From Enterobacteriaceae bacterium UBA5654 (GTDB lineage Bacteria > Pseudomonadota > Gammaproteobacteria > Enterobacterales > Enterobacteriaceae), in assembly GCA_002421005.1 (NCBI GenBank), contig DIJC01000023.1, forward strand, positions 37,735 to 69,734: DNA of 32,000 bases. Direction: 5' to 3'. Below, in pieces: positions 2,012 to 18,600 of the stretch; the first letter of the stretch is position 1, and each line of letters starts with the position of its first letter. The notes under the pieces were generated by a model. That model searched no databases. It was not told the origin of the DNA and was given only the letters and a program-made list of their open reading frames with translations. Both the position numbers and the translations under genes were made by a program.

Positions 2012-3817
2012 ATGACGACTCAGGCCCCACCTTCCGCTTTGCTTCCGCTGACCCCGGAGCAGATGGCGCGCCTTCAGGCGGCCACCACCGATCTAACACC
2101 GACCCAGCTTGCGTGGGTATCCGGCTATTTTTGGGGCGTGCTGAATCAGCAACCCGGTGCCGCAGTAGCCACGCCTGCGCCGGTTGCTGAAACCACCACC
2201 ATTACCCTGCTGTCGGCTTCGCAAACCGGCAACGCGCGCCGGGTAGCGGAAGCGCTGCGTGACGATCTGCTGGCGGCAAAACTTAACGTGAACCTGGTCA
2301 ACGCGGGCGACTATAAATTCAAACAAATCGCCAGTGAAAAACTGCTCGTCGTTATCGCCTCCACGCAAGGGGAAGGGGAGCCGCCGGAAGAAGCGGTTGC
2401 CCTGCATAAATTCCTCACCTCTAAAAAAGCACCTAAGCTCAACAATACCGCCTTTGCCGTCTTTGGCCTTGGCGACACCTCCTACGAATTTTTCTGCCAG
2501 TGCGGGAAAGATTTTGATAGCAAACTGGCGGAGCTGGGCGGTGAACGCTTGCTGGACCGCGTCGATGCCGACGTTGAATACCAGAATGCCGCCGCCGAAT
2601 GGCGTGCGCGCGTGGTCGATGTCCTCAAATCCCGCGTGCCGAAAGAGACGCCTGCACAGGCGGCCGTCACTGCGACCGGCGCGGTGAACGACGTCCACTC
2701 CAGCCCCTATACGAAAGAAGAACCGCTGACCGCGACGCTGGCTGTGAATCAGAAAATCACCGGCCGCGACTCACAAAAAGATGTGCGCCATATTGAAATC
2801 GACCTCGGTGACGCCGGGCTGCGCTATCAGCCGGGCGACGCGCTGGGCGTGTGGTATCAGAACGATCCGGCACTGGTCAAAGAGCTGGTCGAGCTGCTGT
2901 GGTTGAAAGGCGATGAACCGGTGACGGTCGACGGGAAAACTCTGCCGCTGGCAGAAGCGCTGGAGTGGCATTTTGAGCTGACGGTTAACACCGCCAACAT
3001 CGTCGAGAACTACGCCACGCTGTCTCGCAGTGAAACGCTGCTGCCGCTGGCGGGCGATAAAACCCAGCTTCAGCACTATGCGGCGACTACCCCGATTGTC
3101 GATATGGTGCGCTTTTCCCCCGCGCAGCTGGATGCCGACACCTTAATTGGCCTGCTGCGTCCGCTGACGCCGCGCCTCTACTCCATCGCCTCGTCGCAGG
3201 CGGAAGTGGAGAACGAGGTGCATATCACCGTCGGCGCAGTGCGTTATGACATCGAAGGCCGTGCCCGTGCGGGTGGCGCATCCAGCTTCCTCGCCGATCG
3301 CGTCGAAGAAGACGGCGAAATCCGCGTGTTCATTGAACATAACGATAACTTCCGTCTGCCCGCCAACCCGGAAACCCCGGTCATTATGATTGGCCCTGGT
3401 ACGGGCATCGCACCGTTCCGCGCCTTTATGCAGCAGCGTGCGGCGGATGAAGCGCCGGGCAAAAACTGGTTGTTCTTCGGCAACCCTCATTTCACCGAAG
3501 ATTTTCTCTATCAGGTGGAATGGCAGCGCTATGTTAAAGAGGGGGTACTAAGCCGTATCGATCTGGCCTGGTCCCGCGATCAAAAAGAAAAAGTCTATGT
3601 ACAGGACAAACTGCGCGAACAGGGCGCAGAACTGTGGCGCTGGATCAATGACGGCGCGCACATTTATGTCTGCGGCGACGCCAATCGCATGGCGAAAGAC
3701 GTTGAGCAGGCGTTGCTGGAAGTGATTGCTGAATTCGGCGGTATGGATGTCGAATCGGCGGATGAATTTTTAAGTGAGCTGCGCGTAGAGCGCCGTTATC
3801 AGCGAGATGTCTACTAA
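2012..3817 (+). CDS. cysJ: Sulfite reductase [NADPH] flavoprotein alpha component
   Basis: 601-aa ORF with a flavodoxin-like N-terminal half and an FAD/NADPH reductase C-terminus ([18 protein letters not shown], ...RYQRDVY). The stop overlaps the cysI ATG (TAATG). Confidence 0.96.
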
Positions 3818-5529
3818 TGAGCGAAAAACATCCAGGCCCACTGGTGGTCGAAGGCAAACTGGTCGATGCCGAGCGCATGAAGCTGGAAAGCAACTACCTG
3901 CGTGGCACCATTGCCGAAGATTTAAATGACGGTCTGACCGGCGGCTTCAAAGGCGATAACTTCCTGCTGATCCGCTTTCACGGGATGTATCAGCAGGATG
4001 ACCGCGATATCCGCGCCGAACGCGCCGAGCAGAAACTGGAACCGCGCCATGCGATGATGCTGCGCTGCCGTCTGCCAGGTGGGGTGATCACCACCAAACA
4101 GTGGCAGGCGATGGATACATTCGCCGACGACAACACCCTTTACGGCAGTATTCGCCTGACTAACCGTCAGACGTTTCAGTTCCACGGCATTCTGAAGAAG
4201 CACGTCAAACCGGTACACCAGTTGCTGCATTCGGTCGGGCTGGATGCGCTGGCGACCGCCAACGACGTAAACCGTAACGTGCTGTGTACGTCCAACCCGT
4301 ATGAGTCTGAGTTACACGCGCAAGCCTACGAGTGGGCGAAAAAAATCTCCGAGCATCTGCTGCCGCGCACCCGCGCCTATGCGGAGATCTGGCTCGATCA
4401 GGAAAAAGTCGCCACGACCGATGAAGAGCCGATCCTCGGTCAGACCTATCTGCCGCGTAAGTTTAAAACCACGGTGGTGATCCCGCCGCAGAACGATATC
4501 GATCTGCACGCCAACGACATGAACTTTGTCGCGGTGGCGGAGAACGGCAAACTGGTCGGCTTCAACCTGCTGGTGGGCGGCGGTCTTTCCATTGAGCACG
4601 GCAACAAAAAAACCTACGCCCGTACCGCAAGCGAGTTTGGTTATCTGCCGCTGGAGCACACGCTGGCGGTGGCGGAAGCGGTGGTCACCACCCAGCGCGA
4701 CTGGGGCAACCGTACCGACCGTAAAAACGCCAAAACCAAATACACGCTGGAACGCGTGGGCGTTGAGACATTTAAAGCGGAAGTGGAACGCCGCGCGGGC
4801 ATTACGTTCGAACCGATCCGCCCGTATGAGTTCACCGGGCGCGGGGATCGCATTGGCTGGGTAAAAGGCATCGACAATAAATGGCACCTGACGCTGTTTA
4901 TCGAGAACGGTCGTATTCTGGATTATCCGGGTCGTCCGCTGAAAACCGGGCTGCTGGAGATCGCCAAAGTCCACAAAGGCGAGTTCCGCATTACCGCTAA
5001 CCAGAACCTGATTGTTGCTGGCGTCCCCGACAGCCAGAAGAACAAAATCGAAAAGCTGGCCCGCGAGCATGGCCTGATGAACGCAGTGACGCCGCAGCGT
5101 GAAAACTCTATGGCCTGCGTGTCGTTCCCCACCTGCCCGCTGGCGATGGCGGAAGCGGAACGTTTTCTGCCGTCGTTCACCGATAAAGTGGAAACGATTC
5201 TGGAAAAACACGGTATTCCTGACGAGCATATTGTGATGCGCGTCACCGGCTGCCCGAACGGCTGCGGACGCGCGATGCTGGCCGAGCTGGGGCTGATCGG
5301 CAAAGCGCCGGGTCGCTACAATGTGCATCTTGGCGGCAACCGCATCGGTACGCGCATTCCGCGCATGTACCGGGAAAATATTACCGAACCCGAAATTCTC
5401 GACACTATCGACGAGTTAGTCGGGCGCTGGGCAAAAGAGCGCGAAGCGGGTGAAGGCTTCGGCGATTTTACGGTGCGTGCGGGCATCGTGCGCCCGGTGC
5501 TCGATCCCGCCAGGGATTTATGGGACTAA
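3817..5529 (+). CDS. cysI: Sulfite reductase [NADPH] hemoprotein beta component
   Basis: 570-aa [18 protein letters not shown]... with the siroheme/4Fe-4S cysteine motifs ([25 protein letters not shown]). Confidence 0.96.
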
Positions 5530-5534
5530 CCCTT

Positions 5535-5558
5535 TTCCCTCTCCTGCGGGAGAGGGAA
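5535..5558 (+). other. Perfect 10-bp hairpin in the cysI-cysH spacer
   Basis: TTCCCTCTCC-TGCG-GGAGAGGGAA, 6 nt after the cysI stop. No U-tract follows, so it is more likely an intra-operon RNA structure than a terminator. Confidence 0.6.
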
Positions 5559-5577
5559 CCCGACTAAAGAGGTCACT

Positions 5578-6312
5578 ATGTCCGTACTTAATCTGAATGC
5601 GCTGAACGAGTTAGCCAAAGACGAGCGCGCGCAGGCGCTGGCCGACACCAACGCCCAACTGGAGCAGCGCAGTGCTGAAGAGCGCGTGGCGTGGGCGCTG
5701 GAAAATTTGCCCGGTGAATATGTGCTCTCATCGAGCTTCGGCATCCAGGCAGCGGTCAGCCTGCATCTGGTAAATCAGGTAAGCCCGAATATCCCGGTGA
5801 TCCTTACCGATACCGGCTATCTGTTCCCGGAAACCTACCGTTTTATTGATGAGTTAACGGATAAACTCAACCTCAATCTGAAAGTGTATCGCGCCCGGGA
5901 AAGCGCGGCCTGGCAGGAAGCGCGCTACGGCAAACTGTGGGAGCAGGGTGTCGAAGGGATCGAGAAGTACAACGACATCAATAAAGTTGAGCCGATGAAC
6001 CGCGCGCTTGCCGATCTCAACGCGCAAACCTGGTTTGCGGGCCTGCGCCGCGAGCAGTCCGGCAGCCGCGCCAGCCTGCCGGTGCTGGGCATTCAGCGCG
6101 GCGTATTTAAAGTCCTGCCCATCATCGACTGGGATAACCGCACGGTATATCAGTACCTGCAAAAACATGGTCTGAAGTACCATCCGCTATGGGATGAAGG
6201 CTATTTGTCGGTGGGCGACACGCATACCACCCGCAAATGGGAGCCGGGCATGGCAGAGGAAGACACGCGCTTCTTTGGCCTGAAGCGCGAGTGCGGGCTG
6301 CACGAGGGGTGA
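5578..6312 (+). CDS. cysH: Phosphoadenosine phosphosulfate (PAPS) reductase
   Basis: 244-aa ORF ending ...[14 protein letters not shown] (conserved ECGLH motif). An AGAGG Shine-Dalgarno (SD) sequence lies upstream. Confidence 0.95.
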
Positions 6313-6362: not shown

Positions 6363-9062
6363 TTATCCCGTTAAGCCCGCGCGTTTACTGTAATAGCGGG
6401 CTTCTCCGCTATTTGATACCAGCACAATCTGTCCTTTCGGGCGATGATACTTTTGTCGGAACTGCTCCAGTTTTTCTTCATCGGGGAGGTTGAATTCCCC
6501 GGCATTTTTTCGCCACCACGAGATCCGCACCGACAACCGGCTCATTTCCCAACGGAAATCGCCCTCTGTGACCGCAGGATGCAGTGTGCCTTCTTCATCC
6601 TGCCAGGCGAGATAGAGATCCACGCTCTCTTCGCCCAGACGAGTAGAAAACTCCCTGTCGTTACTCCATAAAAAGTCGCTGGCTTCCCGATCGTAGCCTT
6701 TATCATGACGCAGCAGATTCTGCGCGGCGACGGAGCGTTGGCTAAGCACTTTGCCGAATGCTAAATCGGAAAGCGTTTGCAGCCCAGCGGGGGCGGGCAG
6801 GGTTTGCTCATAAACGCCGTCTACCAGGTGGCGGGCATTTTCCGGCATCCGAATTTCACCGTATTGTCGCAGCAGAGCCTGCGTCCGCCACAGACAGGCA
6901 TGATCGGCATACACATAGCCAGTGCCGCGAAGCTCCTGGCCCAGCCATCCCGGTTTCGCCTGCGCCTGCCACTCTGGGGCTAAAATGTGCAATACTGGCG
7001 GCTGGCGCTCATCAGGCAGCGCCGTTTTACGCTCACCGTGAGCATCGCGAATATGCCGCTGTAATCTCCCGGCGCGCTGGATCAGTAAATCAATCGGGGC
7101 CAGATCGGAGATCATCCAGTCAAAATCGAGATCGAGACTTTGTTCAACAACCTGCGTGGCGATAAGTACCTTTCCCTTACGCCCTGAAGCGGGCGCGTGA
7201 TGACCGAACCACTCCAGCGTTTTATTCTCAATCGCCAGTCGGTCGGCGAAGGCAAACCGGCTATGAAACAACAAAAGATCCTGTTCAGGAATGAGGCCTT
7301 CCTCCAGTAGTTGCTGAAATATTTCCCGCGCATCATCCACGGTATTACGGATCCAACACACGCATTGCCCGGCTTCCACCACGCGGTAAATAGTGTCGAT
7401 CGCCTCGCTTCGCTGCTGAAGCCAGTTAATCGCAACGCTGCGCCGTACTTCAGGGCGCGTTGCCAGCGGCTGTTCTGCCAGTCCTGCGGCGGACAGATGG
7501 GTCAGCCACGGATAATCTGCCTCACTGCTGGCATCCGTGCTGGAAAATCCTGCGCCCTCATTGAATGCAATGAGCAATCTTTCCCGCAGCGTGGCGGGGA
7601 GGGTGGCGCTCAGAATAATCGCGCTGCCGCCCTGCGAGGCATGAAAGCGCAACAGTCCCTCCAGCAATTTCACCATATAGCCGTCGTAAGCGTGGACTTC
7701 GTCCAGCAACAGAATTTTGCCGCACATGCCTAACAGCCGGAGCGACTGATGGCGAAAAGGCATGACCGCCATCAGTAGCTGGTCGAGCGTGCCGACCCCC
7801 ACTTCTGCCAGCAGCGCTTTTTTACGTGAGTCGGCAAACCAGGCGTGGCATTCACTGGTCGCGCTGTCGTCATCGCGCGCGTAGTTATCACCCATCGTCT
7901 CTGACGGCTGCCAGATCGAGTGACGAAAAGCGTCCGACATTTCCCGTCCGCCGTGCGCCAGAAGCAATGAAGGTCGGGCACCATCGGCAAACAGTGCGTG
8001 GTAAGCCTCTGCCAGCCGTTTATACATGGCATTGGCAGTGGCCATTGTCGGCAACCCCACATAAAGCCCATGCCCTTTGTCAGCGGACATCAGGCGATGA
8101 GCAAGGATCAGCGCGGCTTCTGTTTTTCCTGCTCCTGTGACGTCTTCCAGTATCACGAGCTGCGGTCCGGGCGCAGAAATATCAAGCGTACTCGCCCGCT
8201 GCTGAAGGGGCGTCAGCGTCTGGATAAAAGGGAAAAGCGCATGGTGATCGATATACTGGCTGCGGGGCGATACCGGCGGCAGGCTGGCAAGCGCCCGTCG
8301 GGCTTTTTCGCAGGCCAGCGGCCAGTAATCCTTAAGCGGCATTGGCGTGCTAACCAGCGGAAACATTTCCTGATCCGAACCCATCCAGTCTGCCAGCGTC
8401 ATTATTCCGGCGAAAATCCAGCTTTGCTGTTTTAATTTCTTTTTGGCTGCTTTTGTTTTCCATGATTCAGGAAGCTGGAAAGGAAATAGCTTTATTAAGT
8501 CCTCAATGTAATGACCGGCTGCGACAATATCCTCATCAGTGAAAGCGAGTGAACTACCGTTTTTAAGTGTGTTGGGGGGGATGCCATGATGTCCGGTGCT
8601 CATTAACATCCAGGTATTTAATGCGCTCTTGAATTTTTCACGATTTTCTGGAGCGGGATAAGGGAGGATATTATTTTCGCCGTCGATCCATGCTTCTAAT
8701 AATAATTCCCATAAATAGAACCCCAGTGAATCATGTCTCTCAAGGGCTGCCACGCCGCTGACAGGCGGTACCAGCGGTGAATCCGGGAACGCAGCGTATT
8801 GCTGAAATCCTCTGGCAAATTTGCCGATGTCATGGCATGCAAAAAGCCAGGCGATATAATTTCCGACATCCTCACTGCTAATGTCACATTCAATCAATGT
8901 ATTTCTACAATTAAAAATATTGGCTTCGGTTATATAATATCCACAAGCGGCGACATCAAGGCAATGATATGGCAGTAAATGATAGGGATCATTGTTCTCG
9001 CTGGTTTCTTTATTTGTTTTACCCCAGTAACGGAGATAGTCAGGGATTATTATTGGTGCCAT
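6363..9062 (-). CDS. cas3: Type I-E Cas3 nuclease/helicase
   Basis: 899-aa ORF. The N-terminus has the HD nuclease signature (YWGK..., HCLDVAA, HDIGKF, TGHHG). It also has a DEAD/DEAH helicase core (GAGKTEA, LLDEVHAYD). Divergent from cas8e. Confidence 0.96.
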   Translation of the reverse strand: MAPIIIPDYLRYWGKTNKETSENNDPYHLLPYHCLDVAACGYYITEANIFNCRNTLIECDISSEDVGNYIAWLFACHDIGKFARGFQQYAAFPDSPLVPPVSGVAALERHDSLGFYLWELLLEAWIDGENNILPYPAPENREKFKSALNTWMLMSTGHHGIPPNTLKNGSSLAFTDEDIVAAGHYIEDLIKLFPFQLPESWKTKAAKKKLKQQSWIFAGIMTLADWMGSDQEMFPLVSTPMPLKDYWPLACEKARRALASLPPVSPRSQYIDHHALFPFIQTLTPLQQRASTLDISAPGPQLVILEDVTGAGKTEAALILAHRLMSADKGHGLYVGLPTMATANAMYKRLAEAYHALFADGARPSLLLAHGGREMSDAFRHSIWQPSETMGDNYARDDDSATSECHAWFADSRKKALLAEVGVGTLDQLLMAVMPFRHQSLRLLGMCGKILLLDEVHAYDGYMVKLLEGLLRFHASQGGSAIILSATLPATLRERLLIAFNEGAGFSSTDASSEADYPWLTHLSAAGLAEQPLATRPEVRRSVAINWLQQRSEAIDTIYRVVEAGQCVCWIRNTVDDAREIFQQLLEEGLIPEQDLLLFHSRFAFADRLAIENKTLEWFGHHAPASGRKGKVLIATQVVEQSLDLDFDWMISDLAPIDLLIQRAGRLQRHIRDAHGERKTALPDERQPPVLHILAPEWQAQAKPGWLGQELRGTGYVYADHACLWRTQALLRQYGEIRMPENARHLVDGVYEQTLPAPAGLQTLSDLAFGKVLSQRSVAAQNLLRHDKGYDREASDFLWSNDREFSTRLGEESVDLYLAWQDEEGTLHPAVTEGDFRWEMSRLSVRISWWRKNAGEFNLPDEEKLEQFRQKYHRPKGQIVLVSNSGEARYYSKRAGLTG

Positions 9063-9150
9063 ATTTTAATTCTCTGAAAAGGGGATATAGTAGAAGGGAT
9101 TTTAAAGCGAGAAAGGAAAAGTGGGCAGAGATTTTTGCAACCCAATCGAA

Positions 9151-9229
9151 AGAATTATCCCCGCTGACGCGGGGAACGTCGTATGAGGCGACCAGGTAGC
9201 CGGTTCATCCCCGCCGATGCAAGGAACAT
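9151..9229 (-). CRISPR. Degenerate two-repeat mini-array (psiR1 - 21-nt psiS - psiR2), candidate regulatory crRNA-like gene
   Basis: Minus strand: ATGTTCCTTGCATCGGCGGGGATGAACCG | GCTACCTGGTCGCCTCATACG | ACGTTCCCCGCGTCAGCGGGGATAATTCT. The repeats are 21/29 and 22/29 identical to the array repeat. The hairpin is kept in both (via G-U wobbles in psiR1) and the 5' handle is 7/8. Confidence 0.75.
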
Positions 9230-9279
9230 ACAGGCAAGAGAATAGCATAAGTCGTTAAATACTGTGTTCTGATTATTTT

Positions 9280-9303
9280 ACTATGAGGTATCCATGTAGC
9301 CTT
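9280..9303 (-). promoter_or_regulatory. Putative Cascade/psi-crRNA binding site 1 (AAG PAM + 15/21 match to psiS)
   Basis: Minus strand AAG|GCTACATGGATACCTCATAGT. Identical to psiS at positions 1-5, 7-9 and 13-19. Confidence 0.55.
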
Positions 9304-9327
9304 GTTTGATGGAGAGCATGTAGCCTT
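9304..9327 (-). promoter_or_regulatory. Putative Cascade/psi-crRNA binding site 2 (AAG PAM + seed match)
   Basis: Minus strand AAG|GCTACATGCTCTCCATCAAAC. Identical to psiS at positions 1-5, 7-8, 10-11, 13-14 and 19. It directly abuts site 1 (24-nt units). Confidence 0.45.
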
Positions 9328-9336
9328 AAATATACT
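9306..9336 (+). promoter_or_regulatory. Candidate sigma70-like promoter reading toward cas8e
   Basis: TTGATG (9306-9311), 19-nt spacer, TATACT (9331-9336). The spacer length is suboptimal. Hexamer inspection only. Confidence 0.25.
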
Positions 9337-9456
9337 GCTTTACACCACAAAAATGATGCTGCTATCATCGCCTTCAACAGAAAAACCCCAAGGTTAGGGT
9401 GGTTTCTGGATAAGGAACGTCCAACCCTGGGGCAGCCTGAAGAACTGCATCTTACT

Positions 9457-9579
9457 ATGGAATGGGCGTCCGGGTCACCGGTTACAAGGGCAAGGTTTCT
9501 TATGTTAATTAATCTCGCGCTTAGCCACACAGAAATAGTGCTGCTTTTGGCTTTTTTCTGTTCTGGACTGAAGCGGTAA
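9457..9579 (+). CDS. Hypothetical small hydrophobic peptide (40 aa; 25 aa if started at ATG 9502)
   Basis: MEWASGSPVTRARFLMLINLALSHTEIVLLLAFFCSGLKR. The internal ATG at 9502 has AAGG 6 nt upstream. Too short for statistical support; found by hand, not in the ORF track. Confidence 0.15.
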   Translation: MEWASGSPVTRARFLMLINLALSHTEIVLLLAFFCSGLKR

Positions 9580-9584
9580 CGTCC

Positions 9585-9608
9585 AGTTGGCTCCTTCGGG
9601 AGCCAACT
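9585..9608 (+). other. Perfect 10-bp hairpin with TTCG loop in the cas8e 5' leader
   Basis: AGTTGGCTCC-TTCG-GGAGCCAACT. No T-tract on either side. Confidence 0.6.
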
Positions 9609-9673
9609 TCCTGGGTGTAGTTCCAGCCCTCACTAACTGATTTTGCTGCACTCCCCTATACAGGAGTAACTCT

Positions 9674-11239
9674 ATGGATTTAACCAGGGAAAAATGGTTA
9701 CCTGTTTTCCTCTCAGACGGCAAGAAAACCAAAATCTCGCTCTACGATCTGTTCGATGAGTCGGTGCGGGATGTCGCCTGGCCCCGGCCCGACTTTCAGG
9801 GGGACGGATGGAAAATGTTAATTGGCCTTCTGCAATGCTCTATAGCCCCAGAGGACGAAGACGACTGGGAGGAGGTTTGGCAAGAGGGCATTGAGCCAAA
9901 ACGTTGGACAGAGGCTTTGCAGACTCTTTCGCCTGCCCTACAGTTCGGCGAACAAAAACCCGCCTTTTTGCAAAGCTTTGATCCTCTTGATAGTGAATAC
10001 ATCTCTGTCGCCAGCCTGCTCATTGATGCGCCTGGTGGTAACACGCTCAAACTGAATAAAGATCATTTTATTAAAAGGGGATGCGTTGAGCGCATTTGTC
10101 CTCATTGTGCGGTTATTGCACTGTTCTCCGTTCAGACCAACTCGCCCGCAGGCGGAGCCGGGTATCGCGTCGGAATGCGCGGCGGTGGACCACTTACTAC
10201 GCTGGTGGTGCCTGAAGATGAAGCCAGGTTTCCGCTGTGGAAAAAACTGTGGCTGAACGTTCTGCCACAGGACAATCTCCCCGGCGTCGCACAGTTTCCG
10301 CTTATCTTCCCGTGGCTTGCGCCCACGAAAACCAGTGAAAAACCGGGTAACGTTGTCACCCCGGAAAATGCCCACCCGTTGCAGGCGTACTGGGGAATGC
10401 CCCGGCGTATTGAACTGGATTTCACCCATACCGAAGCCGGAAAGTGCGATTTATGCGGCGAGCTCAATGATTCACTGCTGAGCCAAATGCGCACGAAAAA
10501 TTATGGCGTGCAGTATGAGGGCTGGCGACATCCGTTTTCTCCGTATCGGCAGGCATTAAAAGATGCCTCCGCGCCATGGCTTGCCCTAAAAGGGCAACCG
10601 GGCGGCCTGAGCTATAAAGACTGGCTGGGACTGATCATGGAGCGCGAAGACAAATTTAACAAAATGCAGCCCGCGAAGGTGGTGCAGGCAGCCGGGCGGC
10701 GGAAAAATCTGGGGCTGTGGTGTTTTGCCTGGGATATGGATAATGCCAAAGCGCGCTGCTGGTATCAGCATCGTATACCGCTGTTCAACCTTCCGCGCTC
10801 CACACAGTTTATCGATACGGTTTCTCTGATGGTTTTGCTGGCTTCCGAAGCGCTGTCGCTCCTGCGAAATGCGCTGAAAAGCGCCAGATTTGAAGCGCCA
10901 AAAGAGGCTAAGGTCGATTTTAGCATGGTAGATATTGCCTTCTGGCAGGAGACCGAACCTTCTTTCCGCACATTACTGAATATCCTGGCTAACGATCCGC
11001 AGCGTAAAGAGGTGTTTACCCGCAAGGCATTACGCCAGTGGGAACGCGAGTTACATAGCTATCTGTTTCGCGTTTTTGACCGTGAAGAGCTGACCGATCC
11101 AGATTGCCCCGACTCTATCCTGTTACGCCAAATGAATGCCCGACGTGGGCTGGAAAATAGCTATCGTAAAAATAAAGCGCTTAAGGATGTACTGGCGCTG
11201 GCTGAAGAACAGAAGGAAGCTAAACATGCAGAATCTTGA
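9674..11239 (+). CDS. cas8e: Cascade large subunit Cas8e (Cse1/CasA)
   Basis: 521-aa ORF MDLTREKWLPV..., first gene of the Cascade operon with I-E gene order. SD GGAG lies 8 nt upstream. Confidence 0.92.
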   Translation: MDLTREKWLPVFLSDGKKTKISLYDLFDESVRDVAWPRPDFQGDGWKMLIGLLQCSIAPEDEDDWEEVWQEGIEPKRWTEALQTLSPALQFGEQKPAFLQSFDPLDSEYISVASLLIDAPGGNTLKLNKDHFIKRGCVERICPHCAVIALFSVQTNSPAGGAGYRVGMRGGGPLTTLVVPEDEARFPLWKKLWLNVLPQDNLPGVAQFPLIFPWLAPTKTSEKPGNVVTPENAHPLQAYWGMPRRIELDFTHTEAGKCDLCGELNDSLLSQMRTKNYGVQYEGWRHPFSPYRQALKDASAPWLALKGQPGGLSYKDWLGLIMEREDKFNKMQPAKVVQAAGRRKNLGLWCFAWDMDNAKARCWYQHRIPLFNLPRSTQFIDTVSLMVLLASEALSLLRNALKSARFEAPKEAKVDFSMVDIAFWQETEPSFRTLLNILANDPQRKEVFTRKALRQWERELHSYLFRVFDREELTDPDCPDSILLRQMNARRGLENSYRKNKALKDVLALAEEQKEAKHAES

Positions 11240-15657: not shown

Positions 15658-18600
15658 GTGTTCCCCGCGCGAGCGGGGATAAACCGCTCATCCTCTGCCA
15701 GCGAAGATGCTCGGGCCAGTGTTCCCCGCGCGAGCGGGGATAAACCGAACTTCCCCCACATCCCCGCCGATAGGGTTGGGTGTTCCCCGCGCGAGCGGGG
15801 ATAAACCGCGCTTTCGAATAACTAACATTCCCGCTTGGCGGTGTTCCCCGCGCGAGCGGGGATAAACCGGGACAATATTATCTGAATTATTATTTAATTG
15901 TGTGTTCCCCGCGCGAGCGGGGATAAACCCATATGCCGTCGGCAGCGGCTGTTCGTGCCTACGTGTTCCCCGCGCGAGCGGGGATAAACCGCCCACTGTG
16001 TTTTCTCCATATAGCTGGCGCTCGTGTTCCCCGCGCGAGCGGGGATAAACCGGTAATCCCGGCCCTGGCGTCGCTGTTATCAGACGTGTTCCCCGCGCGA
16101 GCGGGGATAAACCGGAATCACGGTGGATGAGATAGCCCGGCTGGTGGTGTTCCCCGCGCGAGCGGGGATAAACCGCAACATGGCCTCAACGTCAGTTAGT
16201 GGCAGCAGTGTTCCCCGCGCGAGCGGAGATAAACCGGTGGCGATGCTACTGGCGGTGCTGGAGTGGGGGTGTTCCCCGCGCGAGCGGGGATAAACCGACG
16301 ACACAGCGAATTCTGTGCGGACGTATCGAGTGTTCCCCGCGCGAGCGGGGATAAACCGCACAGGCGGACGCGGTTAAACGTGGCGAGCTGGTGTTCCCCG
16401 CGCGAGCGGGGATAAACCGCGTTCCGTGGGTCACTAACTCAATTTTTGGGAGTGTTCCCCGCGCGAGCGGGGATAAACCGTACAGTGAGATTGCCACCAA
16501 CATGGTTTTTGAGTGTTCCCCGCGCGAGCGGGGATAAACCGCTGGGCAGCATTGAAACCAGCCTGACCGTTAAGTGTTCCCCGCGCGAGCGGGGATAAAC
16601 CGCTGGTACTTTCTTTGAATCTATTATGGGAGATGTGTTCCCCGCGCGAGCGGGGATAAACCGGATTATTTATGAAACGTATTATTATTGGTTCTGTGTT
16701 CCCCGCGCGAGCGGGGATAAACCGTTATCAATCCCGTTCAAATCATCAGAACTGATGTGTTCCCCGCGCGAGCGGGGATAAACCTCGCAACCGTTGCGCC
16801 CGTCATTACGACTCTGGGTGTTCCCCGCGCGAGCGGGGATAAACCGCAGGCCCTTCAGATGGTGCCAGGGCTTTCATTGTGTTCCCCGCGCGAGCGGGGA
16901 TAAACCGAAAACGGACTCGTCCTGAGTTGCGCTATAAAAGTGTTCCCCGCGCGAGCGGGGATAAACCGCGAACAATTCAGCGCGGGCAGCGCATCAGAGA
17001 GTGTTCCCCGCGCGAGCGGGGATAAACCGTGTTGCAGAACACGTTCCCGCACCTCAATGCAGTGTTCCCCGCGCGAGCGGGGATAAACCGGGAGCCGGGA
17101 AAACTGGCTTGCTGCATGGGCTGTGTTCCCCGCGTGAGCGGGGATAAACCGATTGGCAGGACGTAACCGGAACACCACCAACGGTGTTCCCCGCGCGAGC
17201 GGGGATAAACCGGATTATTTTCAATATTCAAAGTCGGCTTGTCAGTGTTCCCCGCGCGAGCGGGGATAAACCGTAATGTAAAAAATAAGTTAATTTTCTA
17301 TATTTGTGTTCCCCGCGCGAGCGGGGATAAACCGCCGGATAAACCGCCAACTATAAACATTAAAACGTGTTCCCCGCGCGAGCGGGGATAAACCGGATAT
17401 TGATTATTGAAATCAACTTGAATCACCGTGTTCCCCGCGCGAGCGGGGATAAACCGTTTTACGGCCAGGCGAAGAAACGCACTGGCGAGTGTTCCCCGCG
17501 CGAGCGGGGATAAACCGCCCAGATCGAGCTGGTAGAGTTCGCGCCACACGTGTTCCCCGCGCGAGCGGGGATAAACCGTAAATCCGGTACGTTTTTAGGC
17601 TGGCCTGAGCGTGTTCCCCGCGCGAGCGGGGATAAACCGTCCCTTTGGTACGACAGTTGTAGGTGTTGACAGTGTTCCCCGCGCGAGCGGGGATAAACCG
17701 CCGTTGTAGATGTAGTCAACGTAACGACGCTGGTGTTCCCCGCGCGAGCGGGGATAAACCGTTCCTTCACGGAGTTAGCAAGCTTATTACTTAGTGTTCC
17801 CCGCGCGAGCGGGGATAAACCGCGCAGGCGGTTACGGCTACTGCGCCTTCGACTGTGTTCCCCGCGCGAGCGGGGATAAACCGTTTTTGAGGCTGACACG
17901 GCTGACACAGCTGACGTGTTCCCCGCGTGAGCGGGGATAAACCGAGATGGTGTACCAGCTGGCGCTGGATACGTTCGTGTTCCCCGCGCGAGCGGGGATA
18001 AACCGTTCGTTTAATTGATCAATCATAAAAACCTCTGGTGTTCCCCGCGCGAGCGGGGATAAACCGGAACAATATTATCTGAATTATTATTTAATTGTGT
18101 GTTCCCCGCGCGAGCGGGGATAAACCGCGCTTTCGAATAACTAACATTCCCGCTTGGCGGTGTTCCCCGCGCGAGCGGGGATAAACCGCCGGTAGCAAAA
18201 TCAATGCGACGACGGGTAAGGTGTTCCCCGCGCGAGCGGGGATAAACCGCGGATGAATGTCATCATCATCAGGGTAGATACGTGTTCCCCGCGCGAGCGG
18301 GGATAAACCGATCATCCATCATCCACTGGAGCGCCTCACGGGGTGTTCCCCGCGCGAGCGGGGATAAACCGCCACCGAAAACAATCCCCGCTAATGCGGG
18401 GAAGTGTTCCCCGCGCGAGCGGGGATAAACCGATATGGAGGTTAAACACTGGGAGCCTGTTTTTGTGTTCCCCGCGCGAGCGGGGATAAACCGCAGCCTG
18501 TGCGCGATTGGTATCCCACCCGTATGTGTTCCCCGCGCGAGCGGGGATAAACCGTTCATCCAGCACCTGCTGCTGGCGAGTGGTGAGTGTTCCCCGCGCC

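Follow-up and report, generated by a model that had tools for sequence, protein, structure and literature searches.

We find that the 611-bp spacer between the divergent cas3 and cas8e genes of a type I-E CRISPR-Cas locus in Enterobacteriaceae bacterium UBA5654 probably carries a CreTA/CreR-type module with a Cascade-repressed toxin promoter. The locus lies in a 32,000-nucleotide stretch of contig DIJC01000023.1, which was analysed at its full length and is called the window here, and the module spans positions 9151 to 9612. Within it, a degenerate mini-array, made up of a pseudo-spacer (psiS) between two repeat-like elements (psiR1 and psiR2), is accompanied by two partial matches to psiS, each flanked by the protospacer-adjacent motif (PAM) AAG, and by a predicted promoter and a small open reading frame (ORF). 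Weighing the sequence and its comparison with related loci, we put the probability of this reading at roughly 0.75. The parts of the module, with the two genes on either side of it, are as follows.

6363 to 9062, minus strand: cas3, an 899-aa ORF, divergent from cas8e
9151 to 9179, minus strand: psiR2, the 3' repeat-like 29-mer, with an intact Cas6e-type hairpin and a degenerated T-rich tail
9180 to 9200, minus strand (read 9200 to 9180): psiS, the 21-nt pseudo-spacer GCTACCTGGTCGCCTCATACG
9201 to 9229, minus strand: psiR1, the 5' repeat-like 29-mer, supplying the 8-nt 5' handle AUGAACCG
9239 to 9247, minus strand (read 9247 to 9239): candidate extended -10 of the mini-array promoter, TGcTATTCT
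9280 to 9303, minus strand: site 1, the putative distal operator, with protospacer 9300 to 9280 and AAG PAM 9303 to 9301
9304 to 9327, minus strand: site 2, the putative promoter-proximal operator, with protospacer 9324 to 9304 and AAG PAM 9327 to 9325
9339 to 9368, plus strand: predicted sigma-70 promoter (P_creT, possibly P_cas as well), with a predicted transcription start site near 9375
9375 to 9501, plus strand: structured 5' untranslated region (fold z -2.8), in which 9376-9390 pairs with 9547-9562
9502 to 9579, plus strand: creT-like candidate toxin ORF MLINLALSHTEIVLLLAFFCSGLKR, 25 aa, hydrophobic with a basic C-terminus
9585 to 9608, plus strand: conserved GC-rich hairpin past the ORF, a perfect 10-bp inverted repeat with no U-tract
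9674 to 11239, plus strand: cas8e, a 521-aa ORF, with PF09481 in all homologues

Two Adjacent Matches to One Pseudo-spacer

Read on the minus strand from 9303 to 9280, site 1 is AAG followed by GCTACATGGATACCTCATAGT and agrees with psiS at 15 of 21 positions (1-5, 7-9, and 13-19); site 2, from 9327 to 9304, is AAG followed by GCTACATGCTCTCCATCAAAC and agrees at 12 of 21 (1-5, 7-8, 10-11, 13-14, and 19). Both are 24-nt units, and they abut exactly. An earlier note on this DNA, made from the sequence alone, had reported these coordinates, match counts, PAMs, full seeds, and abutting units, all of which we reproduced from the sequence, and its binomial estimate of 1.6e-7 per position is arithmetically correct on recalculation. 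Among the 64,000 window positions that were scanned, AAG together with all seven seed positions (1-5, 7, and 8) occurs at sites 1 and 2 only, and the pattern AAGGCTACNTG is found twice in the window against 0.04 times expected (100 shuffles, none of which reached two). The two adjacent psiS matches are real, and we regard this as confirmed.

The Mini-array Is Probably Read from the Minus Strand

The repeat-like elements have diverged from the canonical arrays of the same locus: psiR1 agrees with the array consensus repeat at 21 of 29 positions and with a generic I-E repeat consensus at 22 of 29, the corresponding values for psiR2 being 22/29 and 23/29, and the handle AUGAACCG of psiR1 stands against AUAAACCG in the array repeat. 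Degenerate as DNA, psiR1 nevertheless forms the canonical 7-bp hairpin by means of G.U pairs, and it does so in minus-sense RNA only (-9.2 kcal/mol; the plus strand folds differently, at -3.9 kcal/mol). Because this hairpin is impossible in plus-sense RNA, the functional transcript should be that of the minus strand, an orientation that also puts the seed end of psiS beside the conserved 5' handle. The hairpin of psiR2 is perfect (-15.1 kcal/mol, z -4.1), and a terminator-like match on the minus strand at 9175-9158 is followed by TAATTCTTTC; as judged from these features, the psiR2 repeat probably doubles as an intrinsic terminator of the mini-array transcript. Directly past its hairpin, the 3' part of psiR2 is T-rich in the window (9151-9175) and also in L008 and L009, two of the loci compared below. 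The layout is that of CreTA, in that a degenerate psiR-psiS-psiR lies inside the cas locus with the psiR1 handle and the psiR2 hairpin retained, and psiS is partially complementary, with an intact seed, to PAM-flanked sites beside a promoter in the same locus.

A scan for the promoter of the mini-array returned AACACA-18-TATTCT with TG upstream. The motif TGCTATYCT is kept in L110 (OKQK01000011.1) and L123 (ERZ1035001 NODE-1148), two module relatives recovered by a metagenome scan for short-spacer mini-arrays, inside a gap that is otherwise 50% identical, and other relatives have -10-like hexamers 3-22 nt upstream of psiR1. The earlier note had envisaged repression of a joint unit of mini-array and cas3. 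Such a unit is unsupported, since the mini-array probably ends at its own hairpin and T-rich tail, and, between mini-array and cas3, both the window and L123 have a separate, conserved -10 (TAAAAT) whose -35 is weak.

Two further candidate interpretations of psiS were rejected. It is not a functional self-targeting spacer of a canonical array, given repeats of 21/29 and 22/29, a spacer of 21 nt rather than ~32, and matches that are only partial. Nor did we find a phage mimic of the pseudo-spacer (Cracr-type) in IMG/VR, where 21 matches to TGAACCGGCTACNTGG, none of them with flanking repeat-like hairpins, were taken as chance.

Pseudo-spacers and Their Own Targets Covary across Cas8e Loci

The comparative evidence comes from 80 loci encoding Cas8e relatives, drawn from species-representative genomes. 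About 30 of the 80 have a minus-sense mini-array upstream of cas8e; these mini-arrays accompany cas3-cas8e gaps of roughly 400 bp at least, and their pseudo-spacers, 20-22 nt or 32-33 nt in length, are unrelated from lineage to lineage. The earlier note had proposed that psiS and its sites be examined for covariation, with retention of AAG, across related genomes, and the covariation is there. In 20 of 27 loci, an AAG-flanked site with a full seed match to the locus's own pseudo-spacer lies between mini-array and cas8e, on the same strand in nearly every case, whereas a foreign pseudo-spacer finds one in a single pair out of 688 mismatched pairs. When one seed mismatch or an ATG PAM is allowed, almost all loci have a site.

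The search itself imposed positions 1-5, 7, and 8, leaving position 6 and positions 9-21 as the informative ones; over 26 pairs, match frequency is 0.27 at position 6, 0.38 at position 12, and 0.31 at position 18, against 0.85-0.96 at positions 9-11 and 13-14, and it declines to chance beyond about position 16. The unread sixth positions are therefore at chance, and the profile, as far as aligned sequences can tell, is the 5+1 periodicity of Cascade pairing. Over the read positions among the first 15, each window site scores 11/13, and most relatives score 12-13/13.

Alternatively, the direct repeat AAGGCTACATG-N13-AAGGCTACATG might be the site of a protein regulator (LysR/LeuO-type or H-NS-associated), its resemblance to psiS being incidental. 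Operators that take the form of direct repeats, with some 2.3 helical turns from one to the next, are common upstream of a -35 hexamer. The cas promoters of Escherichia coli are, moreover, under H-NS, LeuO, and CRP according to work cited in 10.1101/2023.03.03.530964. A protein operator, however, leaves unexplained the psiS match, the AAG, the 6-nt period of the mismatches, and the fact that unrelated pseudo-spacers each have a matching site of their own, and we consider it highly improbable.

The Predicted Promoter beside Site 2

Judged by sequence and position, the most likely target of regulation is the promoter TTTACA-18-TGcTATCAT (9339-9368), which lies a short way downstream of the PAM of site 2. 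Its TTTACA (9339-9344) and TG-extended TATCAT (9363-9368), separated by 18 nt, agree with consensus at 10 of 12 positions, constitute the sole plus-strand consensus match in the cas3-cas8e spacer, came top in a separate scan (score 10.5), and, when eight homologous modules are aligned, fall on the -35 and -10 of the other seven. The PAM stands 6-12 nt upstream of the -35 in each of L003, L008, L009, L012, L013, L018, and the Citrobacter rodentium module; it is site 2, with its PAM 11 nt upstream, that holds this family-typical position, and the two sites jointly cover about -48 to -95. The promoter may also be that of the cas8e operon, as would be expected of a CreR system: no other plus-strand consensus match precedes cas8e, and the intervening hairpin has no U-tract, but L110 and L123 lack this promoter.

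The hexamers named in the earlier note (TTGATG at 9306-9311, TATACT at 9331-9336, and, on the minus strand, TAAAAT at 9280-9275) are present where it placed them but are not the best promoter candidates. TTGATG-N19-TATACT scored 7.5 in the scan that gave 10.5 for TTTACA-18-TGcTATCAT, and TAAAAT, considered as the promoter of the mini-array, has a poor -35, TGcTATTCT at 9247-9239 being both better and conserved.

A Conserved Small ORF behind the Promoter

What the earlier note overlooked is that the first gene behind this promoter is a conserved ORF of 25 aa (9502-9579). Nine homologues of 25-26 aa, alignable without gaps, occur in Mixta, Scandinavium, Erwinia, Enterobacter, Pluralibacter, Pseudescherichia, Tenebrionibacter, and Rosenbergiella, their distance to cas8e being fixed. 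The family bears a coding signature, with codon-position identities of 0.43/0.71/0.35 and stops that are absent in frame but number 32 and 9 in the other two frames, and the peptides are hydrophobic (grand average of hydropathy about 1.1-1.28).

The leader is 71% identical to that of L123, which is above the identity of the ORF itself, and the leader motif AACTGCATTCTAA is conserved across the module family. Downstream of the ORF, the consensus hairpin has compensatory changes across eight modules and was not called by terminator prediction; since it has no U-tract, read-through into cas8e is plausible. A 27-nt block of the leader (9446-9472) is identical in L123, and an ATG at 9457 within it opens MEWA...; this ATG is in frame with the small ORF in the window, giving a 40-aa version, and in L123 lies in another frame, overlapping the start of the ORF. 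The block may be a coupling upstream ORF or an RNA element.

In having a small peptide and a folded mRNA with 5'-3' closure, the unit resembles type I toxins of the hok/sok kind. The mini-array is the one RNA gene nearby, and its match is to the DNA of the promoter instead of to the mRNA; a search of 9000-9750 against Rfam (E<=1) returned no family, and no antisense RNA gene was found there.

These data bear directly on whether the module is a pure cas autoregulator of the CreR type, in which the sites would repress the cas8e promoter only and the small ORF would encode no toxin but act as a leader or regulatory feature. The Salmonella I-E CreR operates in exactly this way (bioRxiv 10.1101/2023.03.10.532045), no terminator separates promoter and cas8e in the window, in one locus of our set (L014) no more than 141 bp separates mini-array and site from cas8e, without a comparable ORF, and L110 and L123 retain the ORF without the promoter. 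Set against this are the conservation in nine lineages of a hydrophobic 25-26 aa ORF that bears a coding signature and keeps a fixed distance to cas8e, a peptide composition that resembles small membrane toxins, and a proven translated toxin at the equivalent position in C. rodentium (PMC12055562). Autoregulation with no toxin therefore seems to us unlikely, and we retain the toxin-bearing module as the preferred reading.

Natural Variants and the Conservation of psiS and Site 1

L110 and L123 have the same synteny as the window, cysH-cas3(-)-module-cas8e(+), with a cas3-cas8e spacer homologous to that of the window over its whole length. Their pseudo-spacer, GCTACATGGTAGCCTCACACG, is 86% identical to psiS and differs at positions 6, 11, and 18 only. 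Two of these three (6 and 18) are unread sixth positions, and the third agrees with the local site in each lineage, being A in L110 and C in site 2 of the window. A single AAG site is present in both relatives; it is the homologue of site 1, with its AAG retained. Identity between the window and L123 is distributed as follows.

Site 1 with its PAM: 91%
psiS: 86%
psiR2: 86%
Gap between psiR1 and site 1: 50%
Flank on the cas3 side: 46%

On this pattern of identity, site 1 appears to be under clear constraint, and psiS and site 1 stand out as islands of conservation. Their conservation bears on a further alternative, that the resemblance arose by chance or is a neutral relic of a self-targeting spacer, functionless now. 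In its favour, the similarity of psiS and site 1 at the PAM-distal end persists out of register in L110 and L123, following a 1-nt indel, which suggests that past position 12 shared ancestry, and not selection for pairing, is responsible. Against it stand the 0.04 occurrences expected in the window, the two islands themselves, and the one hit in 688 of the cross-locus control; the alternative is accordingly very improbable.

Two additional loci illustrate how the module behaves. L082, reached through P0121, a cluster mate of the window's Cas8e, is a near-identical second genome in which sites 1 and 2 are unchanged; having only two substitutions in the spacer, it is unusable for covariation. 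L081 (Logan SRR9264616, 2860-3000) is the nearest Cas8e relative (80% identity) for which context is available; its cas3 is divergent, and its cas3-cas8e spacer of 141 bp is without a mini-array or any module. The module thus behaves as a cassette that is gained or lost as a unit.

One Operator or Two

Within the locus set, two AAG-flanked, full-seed sites are found only in the window and in L025 (Pectobacterium versatile), and in both the sites abut at 24 nt. The L025 pair lies 416-463 nt upstream of cas8e on the minus strand, as [AAG+21]x2 matching the local pseudo-spacer; its promoter-proximal site is the stronger one, and TTGATT-17-TAAAAT begins 1 nt past the PAM. A 6/7-seed match 24 nt from the site of L067 was treated as chance, its PAM being ATA and its sequence T-rich, and a search of the Brenneria relative of L025 found no relic of a second site.

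It is possible, though we do not favour it, that in the window one site alone is functional, the other being a decaying 24-nt tandem duplication, or an 11-nt micro-duplication, that contributes nothing. Twenty-five of 27 loci manage with one site, L110 and L123 carry the site 1 homologue only, and the L025 units, identical at 17 of 24 positions by our own count, are plainly a duplication. The window pair looks different, for sites 1 and 2 share all 11 PAM and seed bases and only 3 of the remaining 13, and by a hypergeometric calculation the chance that 10 changes in a drifting duplicate would all miss those 11 positions is ~1.5e-4. Each site is independently supported, site 2 by its canonical promoter-proximal position and site 1 by its constraint, and both are intact in the second strain, L082.

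If both sites are used, each of the two, being sub-optimal, may make up for the weakness of the other, or one of them may serve the divergent mini-array promoter. The operator spacing of 24 nt is a 3-nt PAM plus 21 nt and also 4 x 6 nt, in register with the 6-nt periodicity of Cascade, and the [AAG+21]x2 layout arose independently in P. versatile. Two compact Cascade complexes, or one choosing between two registers, could sit upstream of the promoter. We offer only tentatively, and with more doubt than confidence, the idea that two individually weak sites make a cooperative, switch-like sensor of Cascade availability that controls both the toxin/cas promoter and the mini-array promoter.

A Proposed Circuit and the Evidence against It

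Beyond the arrangement described above, the circuit is one that we infer. The mini-array (9151-9229) would be transcribed on the minus strand, and cleavage by Cas6e would yield a crRNA-like RNA in which the 21-nt pseudo-spacer stands between the 5' handle AUGAACCG and the hairpin of psiR2. Guided by this RNA, Cascade would read the AAG PAMs at 9301-9303 and 9325-9327 and pair through the seed and 3-10 more bases; mismatches at 9-11 and beyond 14-19 would leave the R-loop incomplete, so that Cas3 would not be licensed. The bound complex, at about -48 to -95 with its PAM-binding end against the -35/UP region, would block RNA polymerase at a promoter that would drive a structured mRNA for the 25-aa hydrophobic peptide, a probable membrane toxin, and probably, with no terminator following, cas8e as well. 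Should Cascade disappear, be titrated away by crRNAs, or meet an anti-CRISPR that inhibits it, the promoter would open and more Cascade would be made; were Cascade still inactive, the toxin would arrest growth.

The core of the earlier note, namely that Cascade carrying the pseudo-spacer RNA binds and represses without interference in an autoregulatory or addiction circuit, is strongly supported by the comparison. Its explanation for the inactivity of Cas3, a short and incomplete R-loop, holds only in part: the mismatches stand, but the short 21-nt length does not serve, because in E. coli spacers of more than 20 nt still support interference and 14-nt spacers still support priming (PMC5159557). 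Safety from self-targeting must therefore rest on the mismatches and not on the length.

Several points weigh against the circuit. Each window site has one or two mismatches in the segment from 7 to 11, which is nearly always fully paired elsewhere, and the affinity of the sites may for that reason be low. Spacers of 21 nt, when matched, can still support interference and priming (PMC5159557), and self-priming may therefore occur. L110 and L123 keep psiS, site 1, and an intact ORF and are without the 75-nt block 9304-9378 that holds site 2 and the promoter; a search of the two found no plus-strand promoter that was good or comparable, which implies that they either use another, unrecognised promoter, perhaps overlapping the site, or are naturally disarmed modules. 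The 25-aa ORF has no database family, a Pfam search with seven of the small peptides having given nothing meaningful, and the peptide is called a probable toxin from its composition and context only. Read-through into cas8e, finally, is plausible solely on account of the missing U-tract.

The Surrounding Locus and Related Modules

By its ORF list, the window contains a complete type I-E locus. The genes cysJIH occupy 2012-6312, cas3 follows them, and the other Cascade genes, which are intact ORFs, lie with cas1 and cas2 on the plus strand, as cas8e does. The cas3 arrangement is identical in L082, where Pfam matches to Cas3_HD and the Cas3 C-terminal domain are found. Two canonical CRISPR arrays on the plus strand flank the locus, one upstream of cysJ (227-1111) and one downstream of cas2 (16391-17700), and the 29-nt repeat GTGTTCCCCGCGCGAGCGGGGATAAACCG is common to both. 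The Cas8e of the window clusters with a protein of Superficieibacter sp., and megablast against E. coli genomes gave no match to window 9000-9750, so that this is not an E. coli locus.

On the 3' side of the hairpin that follows the small ORF, the window has about 50 extra nucleotides (9609-9662) that are absent from relatives. This stretch begins CTTCCTGGGTGTAG, which looks as if the cas8e ribosome-binding region, CTTACAGGAGTAA, had been copied there and had decayed; in the other modules CTTACAGGAGTAA is directly 3' of the hairpin. From this arrangement, 9609-9662 is probably the scar of a cassette insertion.

Other ORF families take the same position behind the target in Pectobacterium/Brenneria and in the Methylococcales. 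Seven loci from Methylococcales and relatives (L046, L053, L057, L064, L065, L067, and L077) have the same architecture of mini-array and AAG target, with a conserved hydrophobic ORF of 36 aa behind the target (e.g., MGQIKDLIDAINAFAPNPLAVICLALVLAIIVALKM) and, in several, a HicB/HicA-like pair between that ORF and cas8e. In Enterobacteriaceae bacterium LSJC7 (L021), six tandem copies of GGGCAATAT, which translate as (GQY)n or (MGN)n, lie between mini-array and cas8e, ~50-110 nt upstream of the latter, and may be cargo, or a toxin element, of another type. Relic modules with the small ORF family, 45-190 nt upstream of cas8e, are seen in Rosenbergiella (L004), where the mini-array is down to one repeat that abuts the ORF, and in Mixta theicola (L005), where a degenerate repeat is left and the ORF has lost its start codon.

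Relation to Known Systems and Significance

The closest precedent is the I-E CreTA of C. rodentium, in which a translated toxin encoded in the cas3-casA spacer is repressed by Cascade (Nat Microbiol 2025, PMC12055562); we read its geometry from the fetched sequence of that locus. The two modules share their place in the cas3-cas8e spacer, a mini-array on the strand opposite to cas8e, a partial target with mismatches at positions 6 and 12 and a flanking I-E PAM, and a small ORF between promoter and cas8e. The promoter layout is also common to both, the PAM standing 8-11 nt upstream of a -35 hexamer (the UP-element region); in C. rodentium the ATG PAM is followed, after 8 nt, by TTGAAC-17-TATTAT. 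They differ in that C. rodentium has one site, with the PAM ATG, and a 33-nt pseudo-spacer, where the window has two abutting AAG sites and a 21-nt one, and in that cas3 is co-directional with cas8e there and divergent here. The C. rodentium toxin (32 aa, MQEESTRFKCLFLRMMVRLGKKLSISFQLSLH) belongs to the family of L035/L066 and has no evident similarity to the 25-aa peptide.

Salmonella enterica I-E CreR, whose repressive effect, demonstrated in E. coli, depends on Cascade (Liu et al., bioRxiv 10.1101/2023.03.10.532045), likewise has a degenerate mini-CRISPR upstream of casA, with the 5' handle retained in psiR1 and the hairpin in psiR2, and a psiS whose AAG-flanked match lies in the promoter region of casA. 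It has no recognised toxin gene and a single site ~140 bp from casA with 15 consecutive matches, in contrast to the 350-bp, ORF-bearing leader and two weaker sites of the window. Shmakov et al. 2023 (bioRxiv 10.1101/2023.03.03.530964), in a survey of I-E and I-F mini-arrays, reported that ~19% of bacterial I-E loci have one in the cas3-cas8 spacer; the targets are partial, carry AAG, and lie beside the cas8 promoter, with the mismatch at position 6 noted. The survey reports no additional PAM-and-seed targets in the cases that it details, whereas the window has a second, abutting one.

More distantly, the Haloarcula hispanica I-B CreTA uses a crRNA-like antitoxin that guides Cascade onto the toxin promoter (Li et al., Science 2021, as described in PMC12055562 and PMC8501985). 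As described there, its logic is the same, the cell being addicted to Cascade, but the system is archaeal and I-B, and its CreT, instead of being a hydrophobic peptide, is an RNA that acts by sequestering a rare tRNA. In tracr-L autoregulation of Cas9, a non-canonical and partially complementary guide again turns an effector into a repressor of its own promoter (bioRxiv 10.1101/2020.05.21.102756), though in a class 2, single-protein system with no toxin.

In light of the prior papers on I-E mini-arrays, CreR, and CreTA, what is seen here is a known mechanism, correctly found again in a new organism. What is new, in that it was not found in the literature searched, is the doubled operator, the distinct small-peptide family, and the natural variants without a promoter. 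Two questions follow: what extent of pairing is enough to repress without provoking interference or priming, and whether anti-CRISPRs are triggers of these toxins. The pairing profile, at chance at positions 6, 12, and 18 and constrained to about position 15, defines a regulatory Cascade site, and doubled operators are now represented by two independent cases. The module of UBA5654, probably a Superficieibacter, would add an enterobacterial instance to the small set of I-E systems that turn Cascade on their own locus by means of a decoy guide, and behind such operators lies an apparently undescribed family of hydrophobic peptides of 25-26 aa, distributed over at least nine enterobacterial genera and distinct from the CreT of C. 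rodentium.

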